Source: Fibrobacterota bacterium
GTDB taxonomy: Bacteria > Fibrobacterota > OXYB2-FULL-49-7 > JAEUSG01
DNA length: 29,832 bases
Assembly: GCA_016788315.1 (NCBI GenBank)
Contig: JAEUSG010000385.1
Span: 1 to 29,832, forward strand
Direction: 5' to 3'
A program made the translations under genes and the position numbers. Each line of letters begins with the position of its first letter. The stretch's first letter is position 1. Below are positions 1,598 through 23,221 of this stretch, piece after piece. A model generated the notes under the pieces. That model made no database searches and had not been told where the DNA came from. It saw only the letters and a list, made by a program, of their open reading frames with translations.

Positions 1598-2779
1598 TTA
1601 CTTCGTTCCCTCAAGAACAAGTGTCAGCTTTACTTCCTTACCCTTCCTTATTACCGAAAGAACAACATCATCGCCAGGAAGAAACTGATTGAATATTTCA
1701 GAAATTGAAACCTGATCTGTAATTTCGCTGTTATTTGCTTTTATGATAACGTCTCCTACCTCAAGACCCGCGCGCTCTCCAGGGCTTTTCTTTTCTATGG
1801 AATTGATAATAACCCCGCGTGTAGATTTAAGTCCAAGGCTTGCCGCAATATAAGGAGTAAGATTCTGTATAGATATTCCTGTGTAAAAAGATCTGATCTT
1901 TCCATATTGAAGAATCTCTTTTAGTGTCTTCATGGCACGGCTTGCAGGAATTGCAAATCCAAGACCTATATTTCCCTGCCCGCTTGGCGAAATGATAAAG
2001 GTATTGATTCCGATAAGCTCTCCTAAGCAATTAATGAGTGCTCCCCCGCTGTTGCCCGGATTTATTGCTGCATCGGTCTGGATCATATTCCTGTACTGGA
2101 TTCCGCTCTCTCGAGTGAATTCTCTTCCATACGCGCTGATAACACCTGTTGTGACCGTAGGTCTGTTGTCTTTTATAAGTGCGCCGAAAGGATTTCCTAT
2201 TGCAACAGCCCATTCACCAATGTAAAGAGAATCGTTTGGAACTATCTTTATTGCAGGAAGTCCATTTTCTTCGATCTTGATAATTGCGAGATCCGTATAT
2301 TCATCAGCGCCCATAAGTTTTGCTTTGTACTGTCTGCCATCTGCCAAATGAACTTCGATATCAGAAGCATTTTCAACTACATGAAAGTTTGTTACTATGT
2401 GACCTTTTTCTGAAAGAATAACACCGGATCCCATAGAACGGTATTCGTTAACTGTTGGAGGAAAAAACTGTCTGAAAAATGGGTCGTCAAAAAACTGGTT
2501 GTTTACAATTTTTCTTTGTGTAACACCTATGAAAACCACAGACATTGATGCCTTATTTATCGCCTTAACCATGCTATTATTACGGCGGATATCTGACGAT
2601 TCGCTGAAACCGAAGTCTACTTGCTTATCAAGTTTACCATCTTTTTCATCTTGAGAAGCGTACGCACTTTTATCGGATTGCGACGACATTGTTTCACGTT
2701 TATCAAACAGGTTGAGCGTGCTTACAAAGTATCCGGCAGCAAATGCTGCGACTACAAATAAAAGTGTTCTGATTTTCAT
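1598..2779 (-). CDS. HtrA/DegP (Do) family periplasmic serine endopeptidase with a C-terminal PDZ domain.
   Basis: Trypsin-like catalytic motifs are present: TNFHVV (His), DLAIIKI (Asp) and GNSGGALIN (Ser). There is an N-terminal TM/signal segment and a C-terminal PDZ-like region. The start overlaps the bactofilin stop as TAATG. Confidence 0.85.
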   Translation of the reverse strand: MKIRTLLFVVAAFAAGYFVSTLNLFDKRETMSSQSDKSAYASQDEKDGKLDKQVDFGFSESSDIRRNNSMVKAINKASMSVVFIGVTQRKIVNNQFFDDPFFRQFFPPTVNEYRSMGSGVILSEKGHIVTNFHVVENASDIEVHLADGRQYKAKLMGADEYTDLAIIKIEENGLPAIKIVPNDSLYIGEWAVAIGNPFGALIKDNRPTVTTGVISAYGREFTRESGIQYRNMIQTDAAINPGNSGGALINCLGELIGINTFIISPSGQGNIGLGFAIPASRAMKTLKEILQYGKIRSFYTGISIQNLTPYIAASLGLKSTRGVIINSIEKKSPGERAGLEVGDVIIKANNSEITDQVSISEIFNQFLPGDDVVLSVIRKGKEVKLTLVLEGTK

Positions 2780-3108
2780 TACTCTTTAACCATGCTGCAG
2801 TTTCCTTTAAAAACTGCACCCTCATTAAGAATGAGATCTTTTGTATGAATATCGCCTGTAACCTGTGCGCTTTCGTCAAGCTCTATTTTTTCTTTTGCAG
2901 AGAGTTTTCCGGATACACGACCAGCTATTTTTGCATTGATTACTTCTACGTCTGCGTCGAGATGACCCTCTTTTTCAAGAATGAGATCCCCGTCAACAAC
3001 CACCCGCCCCTTTAATGTTCCCTCAACTTTGATGTTATGGTTTGTTGTAAGAACTCCGTCAAAAACGGTTCCTGCTCCTATGACTGTTCCCAGTATTTTA
3101 CTCTGCAT
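2779..3108 (-). CDS. Bactofilin (CcmA-like polymer-forming cytoskeletal protein).
   Basis: The 109-aa product has the beta-helical bactofilin repeat pattern (VxGxVxxxG...) typical of DUF583 bactofilins. It lies 2 nt downstream of parB. Confidence 0.75.
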   Translation of the reverse strand: MQSKILGTVIGAGTVFDGVLTTNHNIKVEGTLKGRVVVDGDLILEKEGHLDADVEVINAKIAGRVSGKLSAKEKIELDESAQVTGDIHTKDLILNEGAVFKGNCSMVKE

Positions 3109-3110
3109 AA

Positions 3111-4040
3111 TTAATCCTCAACTTTTTCCGGCGAAACAAAAAAGTCAGTTATTCTGTTAAGATCCGCCGTATCGGTATAATGGATAACAAGTTTGCCTTT
3201 GTCTTTATTACTGTTTTGTATTTCTATTTTTGTTCCGAACAGTTTTGTAAGTCTGTCTATAAGCTCCATCATGTCAGGATCAATATCTATGCTCTCTTTT
3301 TTCTTATCGGAGGGAGCCTTTGATTCTGAAACAAGTTTTTCAACCTGACGCACATTGAGATCTTCTGTTATTATTTTGTTAAGAAGCTTTGTCTGTGCTG
3401 TTTCATCGCCGGAAGCAAGGAGCGCTCTGGCATGACCCGAAGAAATTTTCTTTTCGCGTAAAGCTGTTTTTACATCGTCCGGCAGCTTTAAAAGGCGTAA
3501 AGTATTTGAAACAAATGAACGGCTCTTTCCTGTGTCTTCTGCAAGTTTTTCGTGAGTATAGTTATACTGAGCAACAAGCTCCTGATATCCGAGCGCTATT
3601 TCATAATCGTTGAGATCGCTGCGCATCTGGTTTTCAACCAATGCCAGAATCTGCATTTCTCTGTCTGAAACCTTATCGCGGATTACTGCAGGAATATCCT
3701 GCATGTTGAGAGCGCGGACCGCACGGAGTCTGCGTTCACCTGAAACAAGTTCGTAGCGTCCTTTTGATTTCCTGACAATTACTGGCTCAAGAACACCATG
3801 TTTAGCGATAGAATCTTTAAGTTCCTTAAGATCTTCTTCGTTGAACTCTTCGCGAGGCTGATAGGGATTGGCTTCAATCTCTGAAACGGGAAGGGTGAAG
3901 TATCCGCCGGTTTCGCGTGAAACTGTCTGCGACTGCGGTGGGAGAGGGCTCCGCTCCGTTTCGTGCATTTCTACCGCTTCTTCGGAGATAAGGGCTTTAA
4001 GCCCCCTGTGTAGCGCTAATCTCTTCTTTTTGTCCGTCAT
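3111..4040 (-). CDS. parB: Chromosome partitioning protein ParB/Spo0J.
   Basis: The N-terminus has the KKKRLALHRGLKALIS arginine-patch-like motif. A ParB-box/HTH region is present (GYQELVAQYNYTHEKLAEDTGKSRSFVSNTLRLLKLP). Its start overlaps the parA 3' end. Confidence 0.9.
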   Translation of the reverse strand: MTDKKKRLALHRGLKALISEEAVEMHETERSPLPPQSQTVSRETGGYFTLPVSEIEANPYQPREEFNEEDLKELKDSIAKHGVLEPVIVRKSKGRYELVSGERRLRAVRALNMQDIPAVIRDKVSDREMQILALVENQMRSDLNDYEIALGYQELVAQYNYTHEKLAEDTGKSRSFVSNTLRLLKLPDDVKTALREKKISSGHARALLASGDETAQTKLLNKIITEDLNVRQVEKLVSESKAPSDKKKESIDIDPDMMELIDRLTKLFGTKIEIQNSNKDKGKLVIHYTDTADLNRITDFFVSPEKVED

Positions 4041-4836
4041 CTGTTGCTGTCCTGTTTCTGTTTATGATTTCTTCGGCAAGCTGGAAATAGTCCTCTGCGC
4101 CCGATGAGACAATATCATAGGCAAGTATGGGTTCGCCCATGCTTGGAGCTTCCGAAAGTTTTACGTTACGTCGAACCGGTGTTGTGAAAACCTTTTCTTT
4201 GAAATAGTCGCGCACATCTTGAGCCACCTGTTTTGACAGGTTAAGACGCGCATCGTACATTGTCAATAAAGCCCCTTCAATCTGGAGCTGACTGTTAACT
4301 GTTTTCTGAACCGTTCTTACAGTTGAAAGAAGTTCTGCCAACCCCTCAAGAGCGAAAAACTCGCACTGAATTGGAATAAGAACAGAATCTGCAGCAGCGA
4401 GAGCATTAAGCGTCAGCAGGGAGAGGGAGGGGGGACAGTCGATTATTATGAAATCAAATCTGTTTTTTATCTTCTCCAAAGCCTGTTTCAGCTTATACTC
4501 TCGGGCGATCATTTTAAAAAGCTCATACTCAGCGCTGACAAGGTCATTGTTTGAAGGTATGATGTTTATATATTCGTTGACATTTGTATAAGAAGGTTTA
4601 ACGATGATTTGGTTGATTGTATCTTCGTCAAGTTCTTCTGTCAGAATAAAGTCATACACAGACTTTTCAACAGCCCGTTTATTAAGACCCATGCCGGTAG
4701 TTGCGTTTCCCTGAGAATCCATATCGATCAGGAGAGTGCGCTGCTCCAGCACAGAAAGTGAGGCTGCAAGATTTACGGATGTAGTTGTTTTTCCTACTCC
4801 GCCCTTTTGATTTACAACGGCAATTACTTTTCCCAT
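3997..4836 (-). CDS. parA: Chromosome partitioning ATPase ParA/Soj.
   Basis: The deviant Walker A motif KGGVGKTTTSVNLA is present, and the length and architecture are ParA-like. Confidence 0.9.
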   Translation of the reverse strand: MGKVIAVVNQKGGVGKTTTSVNLAASLSVLEQRTLLIDMDSQGNATTGMGLNKRAVEKSVYDFILTEELDEDTINQIIVKPSYTNVNEYINIIPSNNDLVSAEYELFKMIAREYKLKQALEKIKNRFDFIIIDCPPSLSLLTLNALAAADSVLIPIQCEFFALEGLAELLSTVRTVQKTVNSQLQIEGALLTMYDARLNLSKQVAQDVRDYFKEKVFTTPVRRNVKLSEAPSMGEPILAYDIVSSGAEDYFQLAEEIINRNRTATDDGQKEEISATQGA

Positions 4837-4873: not shown

Positions 4874-5458
4874 TCAAGAAATAATAAAAGAGGAGAGTGT
4901 TCTTTTCTGACCATTATCCAAGTTATAAACATAGTTATCCACATTTTTAACTTTTACTTTATGTTTTTTTTCTATTTCTTCTATCTCATTATTTAACAAT
5001 GTGTTAAACGTTATAACCTGACCCTCTTTTTTGAGTAATGATAAAGCGCTTTCAACAAATTGAACGTTTTCCTTAAAAGCCCGGGAAATTACGATATCTG
5101 CGAACTTTGAGAACTCGCCCATCTCTTTCTCAACCCTAACATTATGGACCTTAAGATTCTTTATTCCGCACTTACGGCAGACATGGTCAAGAAAGATTGT
5201 TCTTTTCTCTCTAGATTCAAATGCGTGAAATTGGCAGTCAGGTTTAGCAATAGAAAGCGGTATAACAGGAAATCCGTTTCCGCTGCCGATATCTGCTACA
5301 ATAGATTTTCCTGATATTTTAGAGGCGGCGGCAAGTGAATCCTGCAAGTGGCGCTCTTTGAGAAATGGGATATCGTTTCGGGAAACAAGGTTAACCCTGC
5401 TATTCCATTTTATGATCTCTTCGATATATACTTCAAATAAGGATTCAGCCTCTGCCAT
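4874..5458 (-). CDS. rsmG: 16S rRNA (guanine527-N7)-methyltransferase RsmG (GidB).
   Basis: The product shows GidB family similarity, including a SAM-binding GSGNGFP motif. It lies in the conserved gidA-gidB-parA-parB order. Confidence 0.85.
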
Positions 5459-7298
5459 ATTTCACCATTATCATTAGTACCTGAATATCAGCAGGGGAGA
5501 TACCAGAAATTCTAGATGCCTGACCTAGTGTTGCAGGACGAATTTTTGTTAGTTTCTGCCTTGCTTCAAGAGAGAGATTGTGAACTGTGTTGTAATCTAT
5601 TTCAACCGGTATTTTAGCATTTTCCTGTTTTTCAAAATCTTCAGCCAATGCAATTTCTTTAAGAAGATAACCCTCATATTTTGTGAGGATCTCCATCCGC
5701 ATCCATTCCTCTTCAGAATAGGAAAACTCCTTTCCCAAAATTGGACGAAGGTCCTGATTTGTAATATCAGGTCTTTTTAATAGTGCAAAAGCCTTCACGC
5801 TCTCTTTGAGCTCTGAAAATCCTCTTTCCGCTAATAGAGGGTTTATCTTATCCATTGAAACCTTCTTATTCTTCAGACGCTCAACACCGGCATATATTCT
5901 CTCAATCTTTGCTGTTTGCTTTTCATAGAACCCTTTATCTATTAACCCAAGGTCATGACCTTTTTTCAGGAGCCTTTCATCAGCATTATCCTGCCTTAAT
6001 AAGAGCCTGAATTCTGCTCTGGAGGTAAACATTCTATATGGCTCTTCGGTCCCTTTTGTAACCAGGTCATCTATAAGTACACCGATATATGCCTCTGACC
6101 TTTTTAGTACTAACGGCTCCTTACCTAGTATTTTCAAACAGCAATTTATAGCAGCCATCAAACCCTGAGCAGCAGCCTCCTCATAACCGGAAGTACCATT
6201 TATCTGTCCGGCAAAATATAGGGAGGGAATAATCTTGGATTCAAGAGTTGCATTTAACTGAGTAGGGGGGAAGTAGTCATATTCAATAGCATACGCAGGG
6301 ACTGATATTTCACAGTTTTCAAGACCTGGAATTGTGCGGAGAAGTTTTTGCTGAAAATCTGCCGGGAAGCAGTTTGAAAAACCGTTAAGATAAATATCGG
6401 GTAGATTGTATCCTTCAGGCTCTATGAACAGCTGGTGAGACTCTTTATCAGCAAAATTTATAAGCTTTGTCTCAATTGATGGACAGTATCTAGGACCTGT
6501 AGATTTTATGATCCCGGAAGCCATAGGGGAGAGGGCAAAGTTTTCTCTAATGAGTTTATGAGTCTCTTCCGTAGTTCTGGTGATGTAGCAGGGGAGCTGT
6601 TTTCTGTTAATCTCTTCAGTTCTATAAGAGAAAGGAGATGGAGGAAAGTCCCCCTGCTGTTCTGAAAGTTTTGAACAATCTATAGAACTTTGTTTAATTC
6701 TCGCCGGAGTACCTGTTTTAAGCCTGGCAGTTCTAACTCCCTTTGAAACAATACTTTCTGTAAGTCCTGTACTGTTTTTTTCACCTATTCTACCCGCTGA
6801 AATCTGTTCATTACCAATGTGGATAAGTCCGTTCAAAAAAGTGCCGCAACAGAGAATAACCCCTTTTGCGCTGTATTCTGAGCCTTTTTCTGTTTTTACC
6901 CCTGTGCATAACCCGCTCTTTTCATATATCAAAGAATTTACAGAATCTTCAATTATTTCAATACCAGAAAGAGAAGAGGCATACTTTGAGGCCTCTATCA
7001 TATATTCATCTTTATCTATTTGAGCCCTCGGACCCCACACTGCAGGACCCTTACTTTTATTAAGCATTCTAAACTGAATACCTGTTTTATCTGTAAGAAT
7101 TGCCATAATTCCGCCAAGAGCATCTATTTCACGAACCATATGCCCTTTTGCCAGACCACCAATAGCAGGATTACAGGACATCTTAGAAATTGCACTTTTA
7201 TTATGAGTAATTAGTAGTCCGGAGAGAGAAAACTTTGAAACTATGGTAACCGCCTCTAAAGCTGCATGACCACCGCCTACTATAATGACATCAACCAT
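5445..7298 (-). CDS. mnmG: tRNA uridine-5-carboxymethylaminomethyl modification enzyme MnmG (GidA).
   Basis: The N-terminal FAD-binding motif [15 protein letters not shown] is present. The 617-aa product has GidA-family similarity throughout. Confidence 0.9.
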
Positions 7299-7309
7299 TT
7301 ACCGCCCAT

Positions 7310-7325
7310 TGTTTCACGTGAAACA
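7310..7325. promoter_or_regulatory. parS site (ParB-binding centromere). It is a perfect 16/16 match to the consensus TGTTTCACGTGAAACA.
   Basis: The sequence is tgtttcacgtgaaaca, a palindrome lying 12 nt upstream of the mnmG start codon. Confidence 0.8.
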
Positions 7326-7644
7326 TTCTATGTTTATGATCCTCTGTTATTTATCTGAAAAATACATTTTTTTGATATCTGTTATCGAGTGCTTAATTAT
7401 TGTTTTATCTGGCTTCGAGAGCCTCAGCCAGTTTTTTTCTTTTTGTCGGGCACTGAGCCTGTCGAAGTGCCGTTTTCCCAATATATACATCTGTTATCTC
7501 TAAGAAATCCTCTGGCTTCGACAAGCTCAGCCATCGGAGTAGTTATATTCTTTTTTACACTTTCTAGCACTTAAGGTCTCAAAGGGCCTGTTTCCTTATG
7601 CATATGCTGGCTTCGAGAGCCTCAGCCAACGGAAGAATTAAAAA

Positions 7645-7668
7645 GATCCATCTGTTATTTTTGTAAAA
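7645..7668 (+). repeat. 24-mer iteron-like motif, copy 1 (gatccatctgttatttttgtaaaa).
   Basis: This is a direct read. Related copies lie at 7754-7777, 7897-7920, 8038-8061, 8193-8216 and 8323-8346, with a degenerate copy at 7338-7362. Confidence 0.7.
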
Positions 7669-7692
7669 GATTGTTTTCTTCTCTCCCGTGCC

Positions 7693-7736
7693 CTGAGCGT
7701 AGCCGAAGGGCAATTTCTGGCTTCGGCTACGCTCAG
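7693..7736. repeat. Perfect 16-bp inverted repeat (stem-loop), built from two opposite-orientation copies of the 15-bp element.
   Basis: ctgagcgtagccgaag at 7693-7708 and cttcggctacgctcag at 7721-7736 are exact reverse complements, separated by a 12-nt spacer. Confidence 0.7.
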
Positions 7737-7753
7737 CCAGCGGGCATATTAAA

Positions 7754-7777
7754 GATCCATCTATTATTTCTGTAAAA
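7754..7777 (+). repeat. 24-mer motif, copy 2 (gatccatctattatttctgtaaaa).
   Basis: It matches copy 1 at 22 of 24 positions. Confidence 0.7.
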
Positions 7778-7896
7778 ACTTGTCTTTCTTTCGGGCCCTG
7801 AGGCTCTCGAAGAGCCAAATCCTCATTTTTTAGGATAGGTTTTAGTATCCCAAAATTTTTTATGCCTATTCTAGGGCTTCTTATGAGTTCAAAAAA

Positions 7897-7920
7897 GATC
7901 CCTCTGTTATTTTTGTAAAA
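7897..7920 (+). repeat. 24-mer motif, copy 3 (gatccctctgttatttttgtaaaa).
   Basis: It matches copy 1 at 23 of 24 positions. It is followed by a conserved tail, tattgcgtttttagcgtaatttcagc, shared with copy 6. Confidence 0.7.
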
Positions 7921-8037
7921 TATTGCGTTTTTAGCGTAATTTCAGCGTTTTATTATTTTAATATTTCTTCTTGTTCTTTTATTGATTTTCATTATTCCTT
8001 GCTGGCTTCGAGAACCTCAGCCAGCGGACAACATAAA

Positions 8038-8061
8038 TATCCATCTGTTATTCCTGTAAAA
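8038..8061 (+). repeat. 24-mer motif, copy 4 (tatccatctgttattcctgtaaaa).
   Basis: It matches copy 1 at 21 of 24 positions. Confidence 0.65.
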
Positions 8062-8192
8062 ACATGTCTTTCTCCCGGGCCCTGAGGTTCTCGAAGGGCC
8101 ATTTTCTGTTGGCTGAGCGTAGCCGAAACCAGTATTACTGGAAAAGATCTATTTGCTGGCTTCGAGAGCCTCAGACAGCTAAGAAGTAAAAA

Positions 8193-8216
8193 GATCCATC
8201 TGTTAATTTTGTAATA
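8193..8216 (+). repeat. 24-mer motif, copy 5 (gatccatctgttaattttgtaata).
   Basis: It matches copy 1 at 21 of 24 positions. Confidence 0.65.
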
Positions 8217-8322
8217 ATCAAAATTTGTCTTTCTTTAACTTTTATGAGCTCATTTTTCAAGATAGGTTTTGGTATCCCAAAACTTTTTAAGGCCATTCTA
8301 GGGCCTCTAATGAGGTCAAAAA

Positions 8323-8346
8323 GATCCATCTGTTATTTTTGTAAAA
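8323..8346 (+). repeat. 24-mer motif, copy 6 (gatccatctgttatttttgtaaaa).
   Basis: It is identical to copy 1. It is followed by the tail tattgcgtttttagcttaatttcagc, then parS site 2. Confidence 0.7.
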
Positions 8347-8389
8347 TATTGCGTTTTTAGCTTAATTTCAGCACTTTTTATTATCAATT

Positions 8390-8405
8390 TGTTTCACGTG
8401 AAACT
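8390..8405. promoter_or_regulatory. parS site 2, a 15/16 match (tgtttcacgtgaaact).
   Basis: It shares an identical 16-bp core (ttgtttcacgtgaaac) with site 1, which lies 1080 bp away. It sits between the repeat array and the DnaA-box cluster. Confidence 0.75.
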
Positions 8406-8479
8406 AAGCTTTGAACATCCACTGATTTAAGATCTTTATTTGTATTCAGTATGTATAAACTAAAAACATAAATAGAAAA

Positions 8480-8634
8480 GCATGTTAAAAATGTTGATAA
8501 GTACATAAATGTTGATAAATCAATATCTTGCAATATCTAAATATTGTTGATAACTTTGATTATAAATGTTTATATCTTTTTGATAAAGATTGGTTTATAA
8601 ACATTGTGGATAAGTTCAATAGTTATAAACAAGA
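8480..8634. promoter_or_regulatory. Putative oriC core: a DnaA-box cluster plus an AT-rich unwinding region.
   Basis: Five co-oriented DnaA-box-like 9-mers are present: TGTTGATAA at 8492-8500, 8510-8518 and 8545-8553; TTTTGATAA at 8578-8586; and the perfect E. coli-type TGTGGATAA at 8605-8613. They are interspersed with very AT-rich tracts (ttataaatgtttatatcttttt) and lie immediately beside dnaA. Confidence 0.55.
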
Positions 8635-9936
8635 TTATTGGTCGATTATCAACTTTGTAATGTTGAAAACATCATTACTTACTGTCTGATCTTTTTCTAT
8701 CAATTTTTCAATAGTTTGACATCCATGAATAATAGTACTGTGATCTTTCATAAATATCTTACCAATACTTTTTAATGTTGAATTAGTCATTTTCTTAGAA
8801 AGGTACATAGCCATCTGCCGAGGAATTACATTCTCTTTTTCGCGGCTTCCCTTAATAATCTTTTCTTTGGATGTCTTATAATATTGTGCAACTTTATCTA
8901 CTACCTCTTCCACGTATACCTTCTTCATACCGGAATCATTTTTAAAACTCAATATTTCTACAGCTTTTGTATAATCGACATCAACATTATACATAGAAGA
9001 ATATGCCAGAATTTTAATCAGGTATCCTTCCATTTCCCTAATATTACTTGAAGCATTCCTTGCAATGTACTCAATAACATCTTCAGATATATTCAACTGA
9101 TTTTTTGTAGCCTTCTTATGAAGTATTGCTACTTTGGTTTCAAAGTTTGGCGGTTGAATATCAACGGTTAACCCAGACTGAAATCTTGAAACAAGTCTAT
9201 CCTCAAGGCCATCAAGATCTTTTGGGATTTTATCACTTGTAATTACAATCTGTTTCTTGGAAAGAAAAAGGTCATTAAAAATGTGAAAAAAGACCTCTTG
9301 AGTTCCCTGTTTCCCCGAAAGGAATTGAATATCATCCATTAACAGAAGATCACAGTTTTTATAAAGAATACTGAATTCGTCGCTTTTTTTCTGTTCTATG
9401 AACTTTATGTATTCATCAACAAATTGAACAGAGCTGGTATAAACGACATTAGCCTTTTGATTTGAGGCTAAAACATGATTTCCTATAGCCTGCAAGAGAT
9501 GTGTTTTACCTAAACCGCTCTTTCCATATATAAAGAGGGGATTAAATTTGGTCGCGCCGGGTGTTCCTGCAACTGCAAAAGCAGCAGAATGGGCAAATTC
9601 ATTGTTTTTTCCTACAATAAAGCTGTCAAAATTGTAGTCTTTGTTGAGATTTGTTTTAAGCCTATTGTTTTTAAGTGTGTCAGCTATATTGAGATCAGAC
9701 TCAAATTTTACTACCAGGCTCTTTCCGGAGAGCTTTGCGACTGTTTCACATATGACATCGCTGAACTTATCTTCTAGGAAATGTGAATGAATTTCTCCTT
9801 TTGAGGTTAAAAGGACTATCTCAGAATTACTGATATCCTTAACTCTTAAAGGTTCAATCCAGGTTTTGTAGCTTTCTGCGGGAATCTGGCTGCTTATTTC
9901 AATAAGGCAGTTATTCCAAAAAGATTGTATATCCAT
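8635..9936 (-). CDS. dnaA: Chromosomal replication initiator DnaA.
   Basis: AAA+ Walker A (GKSGLGKTHLLQAIGN) and the C-terminal DnaA DNA-binding domain are present. The likely true start is the ATG at 9934-9936 (MDIQSFWNNC...), which has AGGAGA about 13 nt upstream. The ORF-track N-terminal extension to 10041 overlaps rpmH and is unlikely to be real. Confidence 0.9.
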   Translation of the reverse strand: MDIQSFWNNCLIEISSQIPAESYKTWIEPLRVKDISNSEIVLLTSKGEIHSHFLEDKFSDVICETVAKLSGKSLVVKFESDLNIADTLKNNRLKTNLNKDYNFDSFIVGKNNEFAHSAAFAVAGTPGATKFNPLFIYGKSGLGKTHLLQAIGNHVLASNQKANVVYTSSVQFVDEYIKFIEQKKSDEFSILYKNCDLLLMDDIQFLSGKQGTQEVFFHIFNDLFLSKKQIVITSDKIPKDLDGLEDRLVSRFQSGLTVDIQPPNFETKVAILHKKATKNQLNISEDVIEYIARNASSNIREMEGYLIKILAYSSMYNVDVDYTKAVEILSFKNDSGMKKVYVEEVVDKVAQYYKTSKEKIIKGSREKENVIPRQMAMYLSKKMTNSTLKSIGKIFMKDHSTIIHGCQTIEKLIEKDQTVSNDVFNITKLIIDQ

Positions 9937-12664: not shown

Positions 12665-15600
12665 TTGAAAAAGTTAGGATTTCTTCTATTTTTTGCCGTT
12701 TTCTGCTATTCAGCAGATTCTACGCACGTATTCTGGAATAAATGTGTAACTAACGGCTATTCAGTTTCATCCAATCCAGGTCCAAATCTGCCTTCCGTTT
12801 CTGTGAAACATGAAGGAATGGTAGCAACAGGCTCATATGATGTTTCGGGGAACTTCGTTAATACAGAATTTAGTCTGGGTTCAGGCCATTATGATAACAG
12901 AGGTAAAAGTTCATTTGTCTGGTTTAAAGATCTCAACCATTTACAGGGAACAGTAACTACTGCAAAACTCAGAGGAGAATATAAAGACGGCTTTTCAGAT
13001 ACAGCATTATGCAGCAATGGCCCCATCTCTCTTCGGGTTGGTATTGTTGATTTTTCACAGAACCTGAATATGATGGGTGGTGAAAGCGGAGTGCCGGAAA
13101 ATGCGGTATGGCAGGATTATGATAATCGCCTGCAGTACGATATGTCCTATTCAAATGGTTTTACAGGACTAATGGCAGAAGACAGTGTAAACATCTCAGC
13201 GTTATCCGGACGGAGCGGCAGATTTATCCGCAGCGTTCTTGATAAACAGTTTTTTGAAATTGATGTTACAAAACAGATCAATTGGATTCTTTCACACACC
13301 GGTTCAAATAAGGGGGGATTCAGCGGTCAATATGCAATTGTATTGCTTTCACCGGTAGGTAAAGGTAGCACTGGCAGGGTAACTCTATACAGTACCGAAG
13401 ATGGCATTTTAGGACCATCTGAAGAGGGGAGTGATTCGGCGTGGACCTCTGATGGAAACACAATCCATCTAGTTGCATCAGGAAATCTCATTCCAGCTGC
13501 CCCGGATACCTTACCCGGGTTCATTTTTGACGTTTGGAACGATGCTGATTCAGCAGCAGTTACTGTAGGTTTAAACAATTTCAAAAAGACAGTAGATTCT
13601 ATCTTTGTTTACAGAGATAGTATATTAATTCATCAACAAAAAAATGAATTCTACCGCATATGGGATGTAAACACCTCTATTTACAAAAATGCTTTTTACA
13701 CTCTTGCCATAAAATATACTGACGCATCAACAGATACATTTTTCAAATATTATAGGGCATATATACCATCCTTTAACGGGTGGTTTAGAAATGACATTCG
13801 CAGAATAGTTATTGATTGGGGATTTTCAGGAGCAAGAACAGATAGTTATGAATTATTCAGAGACGGGGTTAAACTAGGATCTTTTCCAGATTCTGTTCGT
13901 TCATTTACTGATAACGGAGCGGATCCATATCAGGATCACAGATATAAAATGGTCTTTCATTTTGTAAACAATGGGAGAACGGATTCAATTTTTTACAACT
14001 ATCAGGCTGCCATGGCACCGGAACCGGAACTTTGGTGCGGAAACACCTCTCTTCTTCAGACAATGATGTCGGGTAAAGGGGTTGTATATAAACAGAGATA
14101 TAGCACACACCATCGAAATGTAACATCAGTTTCTCTTCCATTTACCATTCCATCCTTTGAGGGAGGAATTTACATAACAGGAAACATAGATTCTATCGGT
14201 TTTGATACTTTGGTTGCTATCGCAGCATACGATACCTGCAGTCATCTTCCCATTTATAAATCTGGACAGGACAATATTGTTTTTGCAGCACTCGATGATA
14301 TAAGCTGGCTTCGCGGTCCTACAATGTGGACCTGGTTTAATCATGCAAGTAAACTTCCATTTGTCAACTGGAATAATGTTCACAAACCAGTAAAGTTTTA
14401 TACGATTTATAGAGATGGAGTTTATGCAGGAACTCCATCGATAAATGATATGCAGTATGCGGATACAACGGCTGATATTTATACAGATCATAATTATCAG
14501 ATGATCATAACATATCAGGACTTTTCTACAGACACATTGAATGCATTATACTCAAGACAGACTCCTCCACAGCCCCAGCCATATTGCGGATCTCCATCTG
14601 TTGCCGGAAATGTTATTTCCACCAAGGGACTGCTATGCCGAATCGGTGGGGATTCACTGTTTCGCCAGGTAACAAATCCAGGGGTACCATTCCCTGCTCC
14701 GAAATCTCCAATGCATACATTGGTTGTGGGTAAAGTTGATTCCATTACGGATACGCTAGTAATTCTCGGGAAAGGGGATAGCTGCGGTTCGCTCTTTTTA
14801 TCAAACGGTAAAGCGGTTGCTGCAAAGTTAAATGAATATAATTACATCCGTGGAGTACAATTCTGGGCTTACTATGATAACTGGCCGAAAAAGGTTAGAG
14901 TTGACTGGACTGGGATAGGTAAATCTGTTAACTACTATGAAATACTCAGAAATTCGGTTAGAGTTGCAACATTTCCAGGCGTTAATGGAACAGGATGGAT
15001 TGACACAGCAGTAAGCCCATATGCGAATTACACGTACAGATTGCGCGTCTTTTTTATGGATTCGACAGCAGATAGCGCTGATGCAGATTATAAGGCAGTT
15101 GCGATTCCTCCTCCTGCTCCATTCTGCGGAACACGGACAGAAGCGCAGAATAGTGTCAATTCAAGAGGGATAACCTGTATTTCAAACCATGATTCACTTT
15201 TGCAGAATGTTTCAATTGCCGGACCTGTATTTCCTGCTCCGAAATCTCCTTCAAATTATTTGATACCTGGAAAAATAGGAACAGCTTCAGACACCTTTGT
15301 AATCCTTGGAAGTGGTGATTCATGCGGTAAGCTTCATTTTGCAAAAGATAGCAAACAGGCCGTAGCAAGGCTTAATGAATACAGCTATATCAGAGGGCCG
15401 ACATTGAATGTATGGTATCATGATGGGATGCAGGTTGTAAAGATTCAGTGGAATGGGATAGGAGGATCTGTTGATTATTTTGAACTTCTGCGCGATGGAC
15501 AGACAATAGTCAGCAATTATAACGGAACATGGAATTATGATGACTATTCAGCGGATGCATTTACAAATCACACATATCTTTTGCGCATATTTAAGAGCGG

Positions 15601-18600
15601 AGTTGCCATAGATTCCTTGACCGCTGGCTATATGGCTAAAAACCCTTATCAGAATCCTGTTGTGTGGTGCGGTTCACCAGGAATTCTGCAGGATACACTA
15701 TCAAGACATGGATCATCGCTTCGTGTACATTGGGATACGTTGCCCATACCTGTTTCAAGAGTGGATAATCCATTTTCAAACAGTAAATATCCTGGTGCAG
15801 TGCTGATGCTGGGTGAGTGGTTTGATAAGGAAAAGAATGTTACAGTAACAGATACAATGGTGGCAATGGGAATTAATGGAAAATGCGCAAGTTTGATAAT
15901 GAGTAAAACAAGTGCAGCATATTTTTGGAGGCTTAAAGACTGCTATATGCTTCAACCTCCCTATTTCTCAGCCTGGTGGCAGCAGGATTCCGGTTTTATA
16001 AGAGTTGAATGGGGAAATTTCAAGCGGCCGGTTGAAGGGTATGTTCTTTACAGGGATACAACGAGAATATATAGCGCTACCGGTACAAATGTCTGGCATT
16101 TCTTTGACAGATCCGGAGTAAAAGAAAATAATTATCAGTATAAGATTCTTGTAAACTACCAGGATTCGACCTCTGAATGGTTTTATGCCAACTACAGCAA
16201 TCAGGGAGGAAACACAGGAAAAGAGATGCCGCCGATCTACTGCGGTACAGATGCTATGCTAACGGCTGCTTTAGCAGGAAAAACGGTGCAGTTCATTGTG
16301 CCGTGGGATTCAGCAGCCAGACCTTTTACCAGAAGCAGCAACCCTTTTCTGCTGCAGGGAACTTCAAATGTTTGGGCTCTCTTAGGAAAAGAGGGCAGCA
16401 ATACGTATTCGGATACTTTTCTCGCTTTAGGCAAAATTGGAACGTGTTCGGATCCTCTTTTTTCTAAAGATATGAAGTCGGTTGTCTTTGCAAGAATTCA
16501 GGAATATCCATTCATCCGTGGACCTAGACTGATGTCATGGTTTTTCTACGACAGCAACTGTGTCTCACTTAACTGGGGCGGATTTCAGGGTACAGTAACT
16601 ACCGCTACACTTTTCAGGGATAATCAGTTTGTTAAATCATTTCCTGGAAGTTCTACATTCTATAATGATTATATGACTGATCCGTCGATAAAACATCTCT
16701 ATGTTCTTATAGTAAAGACAGGAACATCAACAGACACACTATACTCTAATTACAGTAAAGATGGGGACGGCGGCGGAAGTGGAGGAGGCCGTGATTTTAA
16801 TTTTGACGGTAAATGGGGATATGAAGGCTCATATACCTTTAACTTGATGAAAATGACAGGCAACAAGGCAGATTCCGGTAAAAGCGGATATGTTTACAGA
16901 TGGGGTATAAAGAAAGAATCCGTTATAATTGATTCTGTAACAAGACTCCTTCAGACGCCGGTAACGTTTAATGTTTCGTTCAGAAAAATTACTGATGCCT
17001 CTTTTATAAACCTGTTATCATTTTCTGTCAAAAAGGCAGACAGCTGTTATGGATACAATGTGAAGGATACAGTTTTCGGCATAGGAATATATCAGAAAAG
17101 AGTTATTGTTGTAGCTGGGGCAGAAATAGACACTATTTATAATTACTTTACATCAGGAGTAGCAGTTCCGGTCAGCTTAAACAATGTCATATCAATAAAC
17201 CTTTCAAAAATTGCGTCAGTTAATCTTGGAACAAAGAGTACGGCTTTTATAAGCAATTATTCAGAGGATGGAAAATTGCTTCCTGCACCATCCGGGAACA
17301 TGCTGACCTTCAGCCACACTGTGCCGAATGTTAATACTATTTACAAAACAATAAGCTATATAGCAGATGGTCTCCCGTTCGGTCTTATCCTTATGGCTAG
17401 CGGAACTCTTGAAGGGGGTCAGAAAACGCTTTCAGCAGGTCCTGCTAAAGAGGATGGATATGTAACCTTTGACGGGACAGTCAGAATGGAAATTGAAGGA
17501 GAAGGCATACCAAAGAGCGCTTCGGATATGCAGCAATCCGGCAGACAGGATAAAATTCTTTTCTCTTCACTGAGGATATATTCCGGTTCTATGATGGACA
17601 CAGTAAAGCTTCCTCTTGACTCAGGAAAGGTAACATTCAATTCCGGACCCGATCATGCAGGCAAGCGTATCAGTATAAAGGGTATTGATACACTCCTTGG
17701 TATTACAGTTGATGCGCCAGCCGGTCGTGTATTCCATATTGGTGCCTCTGATAAGAGTGTTGTTGGCATAACTAACGGAACGGAGAGTCGATACTATACA
17801 GTTGCTGCAGCGGTTATGGCAGGAGAAAAAACAATTAAACTGCCTGCGGCTGAATATAAGGGAATGCCCATTGCGCTTTATCAAATGGCGGGCATCACAA
17901 TAACAGGTGAAATACAGGGAGAGAAAAAGACTTTAATAGATGCTGATGGAAATGATGCCGGTATATGGCTCAAGGAGGTTGCATCAATAGGAATCAGAGG
18001 AGTATCAGTTCGTAAAGGGAATGTTTCGCTTTCTGCGAATACAGTAAGCGGTATTACATTTGCACAGTGCAGAGTAACAGGCTCGCTTAACGGAGTAGTA
18101 ATATTTGCTCCTGAAGGAGATTCTTTTTCAACACTCAGCCCTAAAACAAAAAATTGCACAATAGAAAACTGCGTTGCTGACAGTATTGCCGGATTTGCCT
18201 TTCTTATAGATAGACCTGTTGATTGCCGTATTGCTAATAATACGGTTGTATCGGCCGTATACGGAGCATATATGGGCCGTGGTGGCAATAGTCGAAAGGT
18301 TTCATTGCCTCTTACCGGTAATACAGCGTCAAATAATATATTCCGAAATTGCAAAGCCGGTTTTGTTCAAGGACTTGATAACAGCATGGACAACATAGGT
18401 TTTACTTATAACGCAAATATATTCCAAAGCTGTGACAGCGGAGCCTTTTCATCAAGTTATACTACTGATCCAGTTTTCCGCACAGTTAGACAGAGTGCTC
18501 CTGCCGGGTGCATTGAAATTGCTGCAAATGAAAATTCAATATCTGCATCTTTCCCGTATATACCCGTTATTGGCAGTTCAGTTCATGATAAAGGTCTTAG

Positions 18601-20230
18601 AACTTCAATGTCGCCTTTAACAGATTTTAGAGGAAGTCCTCGTGTATTGTCAAATTCTTTGGATATCGGTGCCTTTGAACTTTTCGATCTTAGAATGGGC
18701 TTCAATCTTCTAGCTAAAAGAGCGGCAGAAGGCTGTGCCTTTGTCCGGTACACTCTTACTGCACCCGATTCAGGATCCTTTACACAGGTGCAGATGGTTT
18801 TAAAGAAAGATGGTGCTGCTTTTACATCCGGAAAAACAATGCTGGAACAGATGAGTAACAGTACTGTTGTCACCTGGTATCCTCTTGTTCAAGGTTCCTA
18901 TCAATTTGATTTCTCTACAAGATATACATCAACAATGTTTGATACCACATTTACATTAAGCGATACTTTTTCAGTGCAGAACGATGCTTATGTTGTTAAA
19001 GGCGGCCTGTGGAACATGGTTGGTTATGCCGATGCATCGAATACAAAAGTAAAACAGGAGAGCGCAATATCCGCTCTCTCTGATTCCTCTCTTTACGTTT
19101 GGGATCAGACGACAACCTCATACTCCCTTCTTTCATCACAGCCAGATACTTTAGTGCACCGGGGCAGCAGCTATTGGAATATGCCAGATTCAGATGTGAC
19201 TATATCATGGGCACCTGAGGTTTACAGTGCACCGGACACATCCGATTTTATACTCAACCTTAAAGCCGGCTGGAATCTTGTAAGTTCTCCTTTTCCATTT
19301 GCCGTAGCAGTTCCAGGAAAGAAGTTCTGGCACTACGATAACATTTTGGCAGACTACAGAGGATACGATCTTCTGCGTCCCCTTGCCGGAAGCTGGATTC
19401 TTGCAGACAGCAACACTGCAATAACAGTCAAATACAAACCGGGATTCGGAGATACAGCTTTTGCAGCAAAGATTTCGGGAGTTCAGTACAGGAGTTCCTC
19501 CGATTGGTCTATTGCTTTGTTGGCAAATGTAGCTGGTAAAAATCTGGAAGGAAGAATTGCAGGTGTTTCATCTGAAGCAAAAGGATTGCTGGAACCTCTT
19601 CCTCCAATCGGTCCATCAGGTGTTTCTGTCTGGTTCCAGAACGGGAAAGCAGCTGGAGTAAATGCGAAGCTCTTTAAAGAATTGAAAAAGCCTGATAACG
19701 AAAACTATGAATGGATTTTTGTTGTAGAGCCTTCTGGAAGAAAAGGAGAGGTTACAATCAGCGGTGATGGAATAAAGGAACTGGAAGCATTCAAATACGT
19801 TTATGTGGGCAGTCCATCTACAGGCTTTACAGATATAAAGCAGGGTTCTCATACATTTAATTCCGATGGAAAAAGAACAGCTCTTGCACTTATAGTAACA
19901 AATGACAAAGGGATAATGGACAGATATACAGCGGACTTCTCTCTAGCTCAGAATACGCCCAACCCCTTTAACCCTATAACATCAATCTCTTTCTTTGTGC
20001 CGATGTCCTGGGATACAAAAGAGGGTTTCATTTCAAAGGAAAGAACGGTAGAGCTCTCTATTTATGATATAAGAGGAAAGAGAGTTGCTACTCTTTCGAG
20101 AGGTCAATTAGCCGGCGGGAAAATGTATACCGTCAACTACGATGCTAAAAACAGCCCTTCAGGAGTATATTTCTGCAAGCTCGTTTCCGGTAAATATGAA
20201 AGCACCAGAAAGATGCTTCTTGTAAGGTAA
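12665..20230 (+). CDS. Giant (~2521 aa) secreted modular protein with a T9SS C-terminal sorting domain. It has a signal peptide, a ~450-aa N-terminal region, five tandem ~180-aa modules (each a Cys-containing subdomain plus an FN3-like domain), a Gly linker, a right-handed parallel beta-helix (pectate-lyase-like) region and the CTD.
   Basis: It uses a TTG start with a strong GGAGGGAGA Shine-Dalgarno sequence 6-8 nt upstream. The signal peptide is MKKLGFLLFFAVFCYSADS. Tandem modules are marked by (W/Y/F)CG(S/T/N) plus IRGP plus W..G......Y.L.RDG motifs. PbH1-like repeats are present (NNTVVSAVYG..., NNIFRNCKAGF...). The C-terminus (NPFNPITSISF...ELSIYDIRGKRV...SGVYFCKL...TRKMLLVR) fits the T9SS type-A CTD pattern. 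Confidence 0.8.
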   Translation: MKKLGFLLFFAVFCYSADSTHVFWNKCVTNGYSVSSNPGPNLPSVSVKHEGMVATGSYDVSGNFVNTEFSLGSGHYDNRGKSSFVWFKDLNHLQGTVTTAKLRGEYKDGFSDTALCSNGPISLRVGIVDFSQNLNMMGGESGVPENAVWQDYDNRLQYDMSYSNGFTGLMAEDSVNISALSGRSGRFIRSVLDKQFFEIDVTKQINWILSHTGSNKGGFSGQYAIVLLSPVGKGSTGRVTLYSTEDGILGPSEEGSDSAWTSDGNTIHLVASGNLIPAAPDTLPGFIFDVWNDADSAAVTVGLNNFKKTVDSIFVYRDSILIHQQKNEFYRIWDVNTSIYKNAFYTLAIKYTDASTDTFFKYYRAYIPSFNGWFRNDIRRIVIDWGFSGARTDSYELFRDGVKLGSFPDSVRSFTDNGADPYQDHRYKMVFHFVNNGRTDSIFYNYQAAMAPEPELWCGNTSLLQTMMSGKGVVYKQRYSTHHRNVTSVSLPFTIPSFEGGIYITGNIDSIGFDTLVAIAAYDTCSHLPIYKSGQDNIVFAALDDISWLRGPTMWTWFNHASKLPFVNWNNVHKPVKFYTIYRDGVYAGTPSINDMQYADTTADIYTDHNYQMIITYQDFSTDTLNALYSRQTPPQPQPYCGSPSVAGNVISTKGLLCRIGGDSLFRQVTNPGVPFPAPKSPMHTLVVGKVDSITDTLVILGKGDSCGSLFLSNGKAVAAKLNEYNYIRGVQFWAYYDNWPKKVRVDWTGIGKSVNYYEILRNSVRVATFPGVNGTGWIDTAVSPYANYTYRLRVFFMDSTADSADADYKAVAIPPPAPFCGTRTEAQNSVNSRGITCISNHDSLLQNVSIAGPVFPAPKSPSNYLIPGKIGTASDTFVILGSGDSCGKLHFAKDSKQAVARLNEYSYIRGPTLNVWYHDGMQVVKIQWNGIGGSVDYFELLRDGQTIVSNYNGTWNYDDYSADAFTNHTYLLRIFKSGVAIDSLTAGYMAKNPYQNPVVWCGSPGILQDTLSRHGSSLRVHWDTLPIPVSRVDNPFSNSKYPGAVLMLGEWFDKEKNVTVTDTMVAMGINGKCASLIMSKTSAAYFWRLKDCYMLQPPYFSAWWQQDSGFIRVEWGNFKRPVEGYVLYRDTTRIYSATGTNVWHFFDRSGVKENNYQYKILVNYQDSTSEWFYANYSNQGGNTGKEMPPIYCGTDAMLTAALAGKTVQFIVPWDSAARPFTRSSNPFLLQGTSNVWALLGKEGSNTYSDTFLALGKIGTCSDPLFSKDMKSVVFARIQEYPFIRGPRLMSWFFYDSNCVSLNWGGFQGTVTTATLFRDNQFVKSFPGSSTFYNDYMTDPSIKHLYVLIVKTGTSTDTLYSNYSKDGDGGGSGGGRDFNFDGKWGYEGSYTFNLMKMTGNKADSGKSGYVYRWGIKKESVIIDSVTRLLQTPVTFNVSFRKITDASFINLLSFSVKKADSCYGYNVKDTVFGIGIYQKRVIVVAGAEIDTIYNYFTSGVAVPVSLNNVISINLSKIASVNLGTKSTAFISNYSEDGKLLPAPSGNMLTFSHTVPNVNTIYKTISYIADGLPFGLILMASGTLEGGQKTLSAGPAKEDGYVTFDGTVRMEIEGEGIPKSASDMQQSGRQDKILFSSLRIYSGSMMDTVKLPLDSGKVTFNSGPDHAGKRISIKGIDTLLGITVDAPAGRVFHIGASDKSVVGITNGTESRYYTVAAAVMAGEKTIKLPAAEYKGMPIALYQMAGITITGEIQGEKKTLIDADGNDAGIWLKEVASIGIRGVSVRKGNVSLSANTVSGITFAQCRVTGSLNGVVIFAPEGDSFSTLSPKTKNCTIENCVADSIAGFAFLIDRPVDCRIANNTVVSAVYGAYMGRGGNSRKVSLPLTGNTASNNIFRNCKAGFVQGLDNSMDNIGFTYNANIFQSCDSGAFSSSYTTDPVFRTVRQSAPAGCIEIAANENSISASFPYIPVIGSSVHDKGLRTSMSPLTDFRGSPRVLSNSLDIGAFELFDLRMGFNLLAKRAAEGCAFVRYTLTAPDSGSFTQVQMVLKKDGAAFTSGKTMLEQMSNSTVVTWYPLVQGSYQFDFSTRYTSTMFDTTFTLSDTFSVQNDAYVVKGGLWNMVGYADASNTKVKQESAISALSDSSLYVWDQTTTSYSLLSSQPDTLVHRGSSYWNMPDSDVTISWAPEVYSAPDTSDFILNLKAGWNLVSSPFPFAVAVPGKKFWHYDNILADYRGYDLLRPLAGSWILADSNTAITVKYKPGFGDTAFAAKISGVQYRSSSDWSIALLANVAGKNLEGRIAGVSSEAKGLLEPLPPIGPSGVSVWFQNGKAAGVNAKLFKELKKPDNENYEWIFVVEPSGRKGEVTISGDGIKELEAFKYVYVGSPSTGFTDIKQGSHTFNSDGKRTALALIVTNDKGIMDRYTADFSLAQNTPNPFNPITSISFFVPMSWDTKEGFISKERTVELSIYDIRGKRVATLSRGQLAGGKMYTVNYDAKNSPSGVYFCKLVSGKYESTRKMLLVR

Positions 20231-23078: not shown

Positions 23079-23221
23079 AAAAACGCTCCTTGAAAGAATT
23101 GCCGGAAAAATCGTACAATACAACTGTTATATGATTTTAAGTTAAACTAAAAGAACTTAAAATTCCTGTAAAATACGAACCAAAACATGTAAGAAAAGTA
23201 CAAAATGGTTTTATCTATTAA

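Follow-up and report, generated by a model that had tools for sequence, protein, structure and literature searches.

Bactofilin genes that directly follow the chromosome partition genes parA and parB are known from Myxococcus xanthus and Bdellovibrio bacteriovorus. In M. xanthus, parA, parB, bacM and, last in order, the lipoprotein gene MXAN_7474 are co-transcribed, and segregation does not require BacM or MXAN_7474 (PMC3899335). Deletion of bacM, directly downstream of parAB, leaves the localization of ParA and ParB unchanged (PMC5703909), and BacM acts in cell shape (PMC5703909; PMC3899335). The ParABS scaffold of this organism is formed by the bactofilins BacNOP, with the ParB-like adaptor PadC and a long BacP tail, at a separate locus (PMC5703909). 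In B. bacteriovorus, parA3 (bd3906), parB (bd3905) and the bactofilin gene bd3904 are co-transcribed, as found by reverse transcription PCR (PMC7186360; map in PMC10547168), and the authors speculate on a similar link (PMC7186360). Other bactofilins are paired with M23 peptidases: the cytoplasmic tail of LmdC binds the bactofilin BacA, and together they control local peptidoglycan remodeling, with bactofilin–M23 gene pairs reported in 226 species, a survey that includes the pair of Fibrobacter succinogenes S85 (PMC10945521). Here, we analyze a 29,832-nt stretch of DNA from a Fibrobacterota bacterium (contig JAEUSG010000385.1 of assembly GCA_016788315.1; hereafter the window), in which parB is followed by a bactofilin gene and then by a gene for an HtrA-family protease (positions 1598–4040). 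We put the probability at roughly 0.6 that this locus is the remnant of a parAB/M23/bactofilin/HtrA cluster and that it concerns the cell envelope rather than anchoring of the centromere.

The parB–bactofilin–HtrA locus

Six genes (mnmG, rsmG, parA, parB, bactofilin and HtrA) run head to tail on the minus strand throughout. The features of this string are:

5445–7298, minus strand: mnmG (gidA), first gene of the origin-proximal cluster (Pfam GIDA, E=2.6e-149)
4874–5458, minus strand: rsmG (gidB; Pfam GidB, E=7e-39)
3997–4836, minus strand: parA, Walker-type partition ATPase (Pfam AAA_31, E=3e-67, and CbiA)
3111–4040, minus strand: parB, chromosomal centromere-binding protein (Pfam ParB_N, HTH_ParB and ParB_C)
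3106–3113, minus strand: parB/bactofilin junction, with the parB TAA at 3113–3111, spacer nucleotides 3110–3109 and the bactofilin ATG at 3108–3106
2779–3108, minus strand: minimal bactofilin of 109 aa (Pfam PF04519)
2777–2781, minus strand: bactofilin/HtrA junction TAATG, in which the A at 2779 belongs both to the bactofilin TAA (2781–2779) and to the HtrA ATG (2779–2777)
1598–2779, minus strand: HtrA-family serine protease of 393 aa (Pfam Trypsin_2 and one PDZ)
1500–1530: 14-bp hairpin at which the transcription unit probably ends, 68 nt after the stop of HtrA and between the convergent HtrA and TPR lipoprotein genes

Pfam bears out the identities that a first-pass annotation had given to parB, the bactofilin and the DegP/HtrA-family protease, and the 2-nt spacer and TAATG overlap that it described lie where it placed them, read on the minus strand. 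ParB reaches 178 bits in the NCBIfam model parB_part, whose cutoff is 58, and its translation shows the motif GERRLRA and the N-terminal peptide LHRGLKALI. Upstream, rsmG overlaps the end of mnmG by 14 nt, and the mnmG position is likewise occupied in three of the related loci described below (L001, L004 and L047). A Shine–Dalgarno-like GAGGA lies 6 nt upstream of the bactofilin ATG, within the last parB codons. No terminator-like hairpin was found by a terminator scan from parA to the end of HtrA; the hairpin beyond it (1500–1530) lacks a clean T-run on the minus strand. It is likely that the bactofilin and HtrA genes are co-transcribed with parAB, and the spacing and overlap suggest that translation is probably coupled at both the parB/bactofilin and the bactofilin/HtrA junctions. 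The arrangement is real, yet statistically unremarkable in itself, because short spacers and overlaps are ordinary in bacterial operons. A further overlap, of 44 nt, joins the 3′ end of parA to the start of parB (3997–4040); it is identical in L008, while other relatives have an 11–20 nt overlap or a 6-nt gap, and the C-terminal extension of ParA is poorly conserved.

The operon is of a known kind, because parAB–bactofilin operons have been published for Myxococcus and Bdellovibrio. As in M. xanthus, the bactofilin directly follows parAB and precedes an envelope-protein gene, although that gene encodes a lipoprotein there and an HtrA protease here. As in Bdellovibrio, parB adjoins the bactofilin, but no HtrA or M23 neighbor has been reported in that organism. 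What makes the window a variant is its conserved HtrA extension together with the apparently derived loss of lmdC from the locus.

Gene order among relatives

Loci of relatives were gathered in three ways: by look-ups of bactofilin homologs, by scanning metagenomes with an alignment of bactofilins (A2) and by look-ups of M23 homologs. A contig search with the ParB protein alone yielded only one irrelevant partial match (L007). Neighboring genes were labeled by tblastn, as a simple caller of open reading frames missed the bactofilin in several loci. The gene layout tracks sequence distance from the window, measured by bactofilin and ParA identity, and falls into these groups:

Group (a), L052, L008, L051 and L001–3: parB–bactofilin–HtrA, as in the window (bactofilin 69–92% identical, ParA 87–91%)
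Group (b), L048, L047, L010, L009, L004, L049/50 and L015: parA–parB–M23–bactofilin–HtrA (bactofilin 51–58%, ParA 63–75%)
Group (c), L011, L014, L016, L018/19, L023, L028 and L043: parA–parB–M23–bactofilin, no HtrA (bactofilin 35–44%; 28% in L043)
Group (c), Marinimicrobia L044–46: parA–parB–M23–bactofilin–atp operon, no HtrA (bactofilin 35%)
Group (d), L005/6 and L032–39: M23–bactofilin without parAB (bactofilin 34–43%)

Group (a) comprises four lineages besides that of the window, with which it forms the window clade; the window ParA is 87–91% identical to the ParA of L001 and L008. The parB–bactofilin–HtrA order is thus not unique to this genome. Of the two outcomes that the first-pass annotation had named as refuting it, an adjacency restricted to this genome and without co-transcription or a failure of the 109-aa protein to match bactofilin profiles, neither came about. 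Group (b) comprises seven Fibrobacterota-type lineages, usually with dnaA–mnmG–rsmG upstream, and group (c) unites Fibrobacter-like loci with those of Marinimicrobia. In group (b), and in every more distant group, an M23 peptidase gene precedes the bactofilin gene.

The M23 proteins of these relatives combine a cytoplasmic tail, about 28 residues long, with a single membrane helix, a coiled coil and an intact M23 domain whose metal ligands (HxxxD and HxH) do not vary. Their predicted architecture is that of LmdC. Their best NCBIfam match is the helical-shape peptidase Pgp3, under the curated cutoff of that model. Such a bitopic, tailed M23 gene lies next to the bactofilin gene in L004, L009, L015, L047–L050, L011, L014, L018 and L044, and gene sizes in the L018 group are identical to those of the F. 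succinogenes S85 pair of Pohl et al. Where parAB is absent (L005/6 and L032–39), M23 is the neighbor that stays with this bactofilin subfamily. Because the adjacent M23 proteins have LmdC architecture, the window bactofilin would by descent be a member of a subfamily of the morphogenetic BacA–LmdC type. The relatives pair a bactofilin with an M23 peptidase just as the described modules do (Hyphomonas neptunium and Rhodospirillum rubrum BacA–LmdC, H. pylori CcmA–Csd1 and L. biflexa LbbD; PMC10945521). Unlike those modules, the window has no M23 gene, and the cluster sits in a parAB operon and is extended by HtrA. The comparison with Myxococcus differs again: the Pohl survey lists no bactofilin–M23 pair for it (PMC10945521), whereas the relatives of the window carry M23 between parB and the bactofilin.

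The M23 gene is absent from the whole 29.8-kb window. Since it is present in the sister group and in all outgroups, its absence from the window-clade locus appears to be derived, and by parsimony the direct parB–bactofilin junction would most simply reflect a deletion, or a relocation, of the M23 gene. An M23 profile search for a relocated LmdC gene of the window clade led to three contexts that were inspected, all of which read parB–M23–bactofilin–HtrA.

From this, we propose the following history. Two cell-envelope genes would have been added to the origin-proximal mnmG–rsmG–parA–parB string. In this part of the FCB (Fibrobacteres–Chlorobi–Bacteroidetes) superphylum the locus would ancestrally have read parA–parB–lmdC–bacA, with lmdC for a membrane-anchored M23 peptidoglycan endopeptidase of the LmdC type and bacA for its bactofilin scaffold. 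A Fibrobacterota sub-lineage would have gained a membrane-anchored, single-PDZ HtrA downstream, and at the locus of the window clade the M23 gene would later have been lost, a direction of change suggested by parsimony; this loss would be the reason that parB and the bactofilin gene now stand 2 nt apart. The bactofilin would most likely still be a membrane-proximal scaffold for morphogenesis or the envelope, of the BacA/BacM/CcmA type, and not an anchor for ParB–parS. HtrA would most likely supply periplasmic proteolysis or quality control of envelope proteins, and may, plausibly, control proteins such as the M23 hydrolase.

That the bactofilin lies beside parB would best be accounted for by an old gene order of the origin region, passed on by descent. 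The order gid–parAB–atp is an old one that is found at the origin region of E. coli and Pseudomonas, and in gamma-proteobacteria parAB abuts atp directly. In Marinimicrobia, M23–bactofilin lies between parB and atp, and therefore a position beside parB can be inherited synteny. As a separate observation, atpI and the F1Fo ATP synthase operon come immediately after M23–bactofilin in both L044–L046 and L005/L006, and the pair itself follows parA–parB in the former (Marinimicrobia) and IMP dehydrogenase in the latter.

Does the bactofilin anchor ParB?

The first-pass annotation had taken the gene pair as a sign that the centromere is physically coupled to a bactofilin polymer. On this account, the polymer would tether ParB–parS (or ParA), and the origin would be positioned by a cytoskeletal scaffold, as by BacNOP–PadC in Myxococcus. 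The junction of parB and the bactofilin gene is tight, bactofilins lie downstream of parAB in many lineages of two phyla, a perfect and a near-perfect parS site make a functional ParABS system likely, and the Bdellovibrio authors have voiced a similar idea. The window clade, moreover, lacks M23 at the locus and has a bactofilin without the canonical membrane-targeting N-terminus. In the ancestral arrangement, however, the M23 gene separates parB from the bactofilin, and among loci that retain parAB it does so everywhere outside the immediate clade; M23, not ParB, is the persistent partner. BacM is the only parAB-adjacent bactofilin that has been tested for segregation, and it does not act on ParABS (PMC5703909; PMC3899335); this sole tested precedent therefore argues against inferring an interaction between ParB and bactofilin from adjacency. 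The Myxococcus precedent invoked in the first-pass annotation holds in so far as BacNOP scaffold ParABS, but it fails for the bactofilin that is actually adjacent to parB, as BacM does not affect where ParA and ParB localize (PMC5703909). The window resembles the BacNOP–PadC system in having a bactofilin and ParABS within one organism; unlike that system, it holds no PadC-like gene, since tblastn gives only one ParB-like match in the 29.8-kb window and no second, PadC-like ParB-fold gene. Its bactofilin also lacks the BacP-type terminal tails that dock partners. Taken together, we regard tethering of ParB as improbable, and the claimed coupling of centromere and bactofilin does not follow from the gene pair.

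Adjacency to parB is thus a poor predictor of an interaction between ParB and a bactofilin, for reasons that the comparison of relatives makes plain. Should the envelope reading be true, the locus is an ordinary extension of a parAB operon and in that respect adds little. What the comparison does define is a conserved Fibrobacterota cluster, parAB–lmdC–bacA–htrA, together with a natural 'experiment', in which one clade lost lmdC at the locus and kept bacA–htrA. This provides a testable handle on the role of a bactofilin without its M23 partner, and on whether a periplasmic PDZ protease is a member of the bactofilin morphogenetic machinery.

The HtrA protease and its pairing with the bactofilin

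The protease has a four-residue cytoplasmic N-terminus, one membrane helix, a protease domain (Trypsin_2, E=1e-32) and a single PDZ domain (PDZ_2, E=9e-13, residues 301–387). Its best solved relatives are DegQ, AlgW, DegP and DegS, aligned over the protease and PDZ parts. The His, Asp and Ser motifs (TNFHVV, TDLAII and GNSGG) align to the Protease DO chain 4YNN, the best-matching chain, which reads GNAGG opposite the GNSGG of the window protein. With its trypsin fold, His–Asp–Ser triad and C-terminal PDZ, the protein is a member of the HtrA/DegP family (MEROPS S1C). The DegP and DegQ subtypes have two PDZ domains where this protein has one, and its scores against the NCBIfam DegP and DegQ models are far under their cutoffs. 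DegS and AlgW share its layout of N-terminal anchor, protease domain and one PDZ, and it aligns over its full length to AlgW (7CO2, E=3e-66). Nevertheless, its scores fall short of the equivalog cutoffs that NCBIfam sets for DegS, DegQ, DegP and HhoA alike (for DegS, 246 bits against a cutoff of 423), and, unlike in the setting of DegS and AlgW, no anti-sigma or sigma-E genes lie nearby.

The first-pass annotation had called the HtrA partner unexpected, and this was fair: our literature search found no paper that links bactofilin and HtrA functionally, and the conserved coupling of the two appears to be undescribed. Adjacency of the bactofilin and HtrA genes is kept in about 12 lineages and persists where the M23 gene is lost. 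The genes overlap by 1 or 4 nt in L001, L004, L008 and L015, and are separated by 8–14 nt in L009, L048 and L049.

These features raise the possibility that bactofilin and HtrA form a functional unit, in which the bactofilin, directly or via a membrane adaptor, localizes HtrA to sites in the envelope, where HtrA may control the levels of peptidoglycan hydrolases such as LmdC; linkage to parAB would then be incidental. The number of lineages, the short overlaps and gaps, and the survival of the pair beyond the loss of M23 all speak for it, as does the parallel of another clade in which M23–bactofilin is followed by a gene for a PpiD-like chaperone. Periplasmic PDZ proteases also control cell-wall hydrolases in other bacteria (Prc–NlpI with MepS, and CtpA–LbcA). 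However, the cytoplasmic N-terminus of HtrA is 2–5 residues long in all orthologs and leaves a cytoplasmic polymer without an evident binding site, the literature gave no supporting link, and the HtrA of L049/50 is so divergent (32% identity) that replacement, not co-evolution, may lie behind its position. We therefore hold such a unit to be doubtful.

The opposite account is that there is no functional relation at all: the bactofilin and HtrA genes would ride on a strong, constitutively needed parAB transcript, with their order kept by conservation of the origin region. The genes downstream of the bactofilin do vary among loci (the atp operon, a metallophosphatase, a sigma-54 activator or divergent genes), and both MXAN_7474 and BacM are dispensable for segregation (PMC3899335). 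Yet the M23–bactofilin pairing has been functionally validated elsewhere (PMC10945521), and the stop/start overlaps of bactofilin and HtrA are kept over 51–100% identity, which is more than drift usually preserves. Mere hitchhiking is in our view unlikely.

Two side observations concern the genes at the HtrA position. The HtrA of L049/L050 (7228–8379) is only 32% identical to that of the window, against 52% for the bactofilin and 63% for ParA; a paralog may have taken over this position, and the genes that come next are psd and one for a CDP-alcohol phosphatidyltransferase. In a separate M23–bactofilin clade without parAB, the gene after the bactofilin encodes a membrane-anchored SurA_N_3 (PpiD-like) periplasmic chaperone (6351–7010 in L034; also in L036–L039). 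It starts 17 nt past the bactofilin in L034 and L037–L039, and in L036 the called reading frames overlap. This SurA_N/PpiD-like gene is a second periplasmic quality-control partner found after M23–bactofilin.

The bactofilin and points that weigh against an envelope role

The 109-aa protein matches Pfam PF04519 (DUF583) with E=1.2e-25 and 90 bits against a cutoff of 27.9, with residues 8–104 covering positions 1–97 of the 98 in the profile, so that its first-pass assignment as a bactofilin stands. The solved bactofilins 6RIA and 2N3D (from Thermus and Caulobacter) match it as well. Nine homologs (P0001–P0009) were found, and the cluster representative P0001 is 100% identical to the window bactofilin, while a look-up of its exact sequence returned no record. 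The protein is a near-bare beta-helix core, preceded by seven N-terminal residues (MQSKILG) and lacking a tail at the C-terminus. The N-terminal extension of M. xanthus BacM is reportedly processed, to judge by the title of a 2011 study by Koch. We also considered the MQSK start of the window bactofilin as a fusion with the start of lmdC (MKSK/MKKK); this was dropped, because the DNA at the junctions is too short and has diverged too far for a judgment.

Several observations count against reading the locus as an inherited envelope cluster. The first is the N-terminus of the bactofilin, which fails the membrane-targeting consensus MFSKKKK, with Gln in place of Phe2 and a single Lys; in the published motif Phe2 is critical, and the motif is typical of bactofilins though not universal. 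With the LmdC gene gone from the locus and the N-terminus shortened and without Phe2, the window bactofilin may have ceased to act as a BacA of the classical, membrane-bound kind. The second is that the coupling of bactofilin and HtrA is the least expected part of the locus; with hardly any residues on the cytoplasmic side, HtrA is unlikely to contact a cytoplasmic bactofilin polymer directly. Thirdly, the parAB–M23–bactofilin linkage reaches down to about 28–35% bactofilin identity across two phyla, and could reflect selection for co-expression with the segregation genes and not only inertia. Finally, a promoter scan was at background (18 sites against 19 expected) and is uninformative as to the transcription unit.

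The bactofilin of the window clade, which has lost its LmdC partner gene at the locus and its N-terminal tail but still sits, by translational coupling, between ParB and a membrane-anchored HtrA, may have been repurposed as a cytoplasmic scaffold that docks ParB–parS or marks the envelope site of HtrA. In a broader version, the Fibrobacterota five-gene operon parA–parB–lmdC–bacA–htrA would be a unit that couples segregation of the origin to localized cell-wall remodeling. We offer this as speculation and think it improbable; an inherited envelope cluster that has lost its M23 gene remains our preferred reading.

The origin region and its parS sites

The window is a replication-origin region, because dnaA and yidC are present in addition to parS sites. 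A scan of the window for parS gave five matches at ≤3 mismatches against 0.15 expected, among them:

7310–7325: perfect parS TGTTTCACGTGAAACA, 12 nt upstream of the mnmG start
8390–8405: parS with one mismatch, in the dnaA–mnmG spacer
3909–3924: weak parS-like palindrome with three mismatches, inside parB, of uncertain significance

The perfect and near-perfect sites close by make it likely that the ParABS system encoded here is functional. Because the perfect site lies only 12 nt from the mnmG start codon, loading of ParB would take place inside the mnmG–rsmG–parAB promoter region. The dnaA–mnmG spacer (7299–8634, about 1.3 kb) contains no convincing open reading frame and no Rfam match, and an Rfam search of the entire window likewise found nothing. 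An AT-rich stretch (GC 0.27–0.32) lies at 8001–9000, especially 8492–8613, just downstream of the dnaA stop (8635). This stretch contains four 9-mers that resemble DnaA boxes, of which one is perfect (TTATCCACA) and three read TTATCAACA, lies beside the parS at 8390–8405, and is probably oriC, as judged from these sequence features. Elsewhere in the window, a 2521-aa open reading frame (12665–20230, plus strand), the remainder of which has no Pfam match, and a 947-aa open reading frame (20280–23123, minus strand) both end in Por_Secre_tail, the C-terminal sorting domain of type IX secretion.

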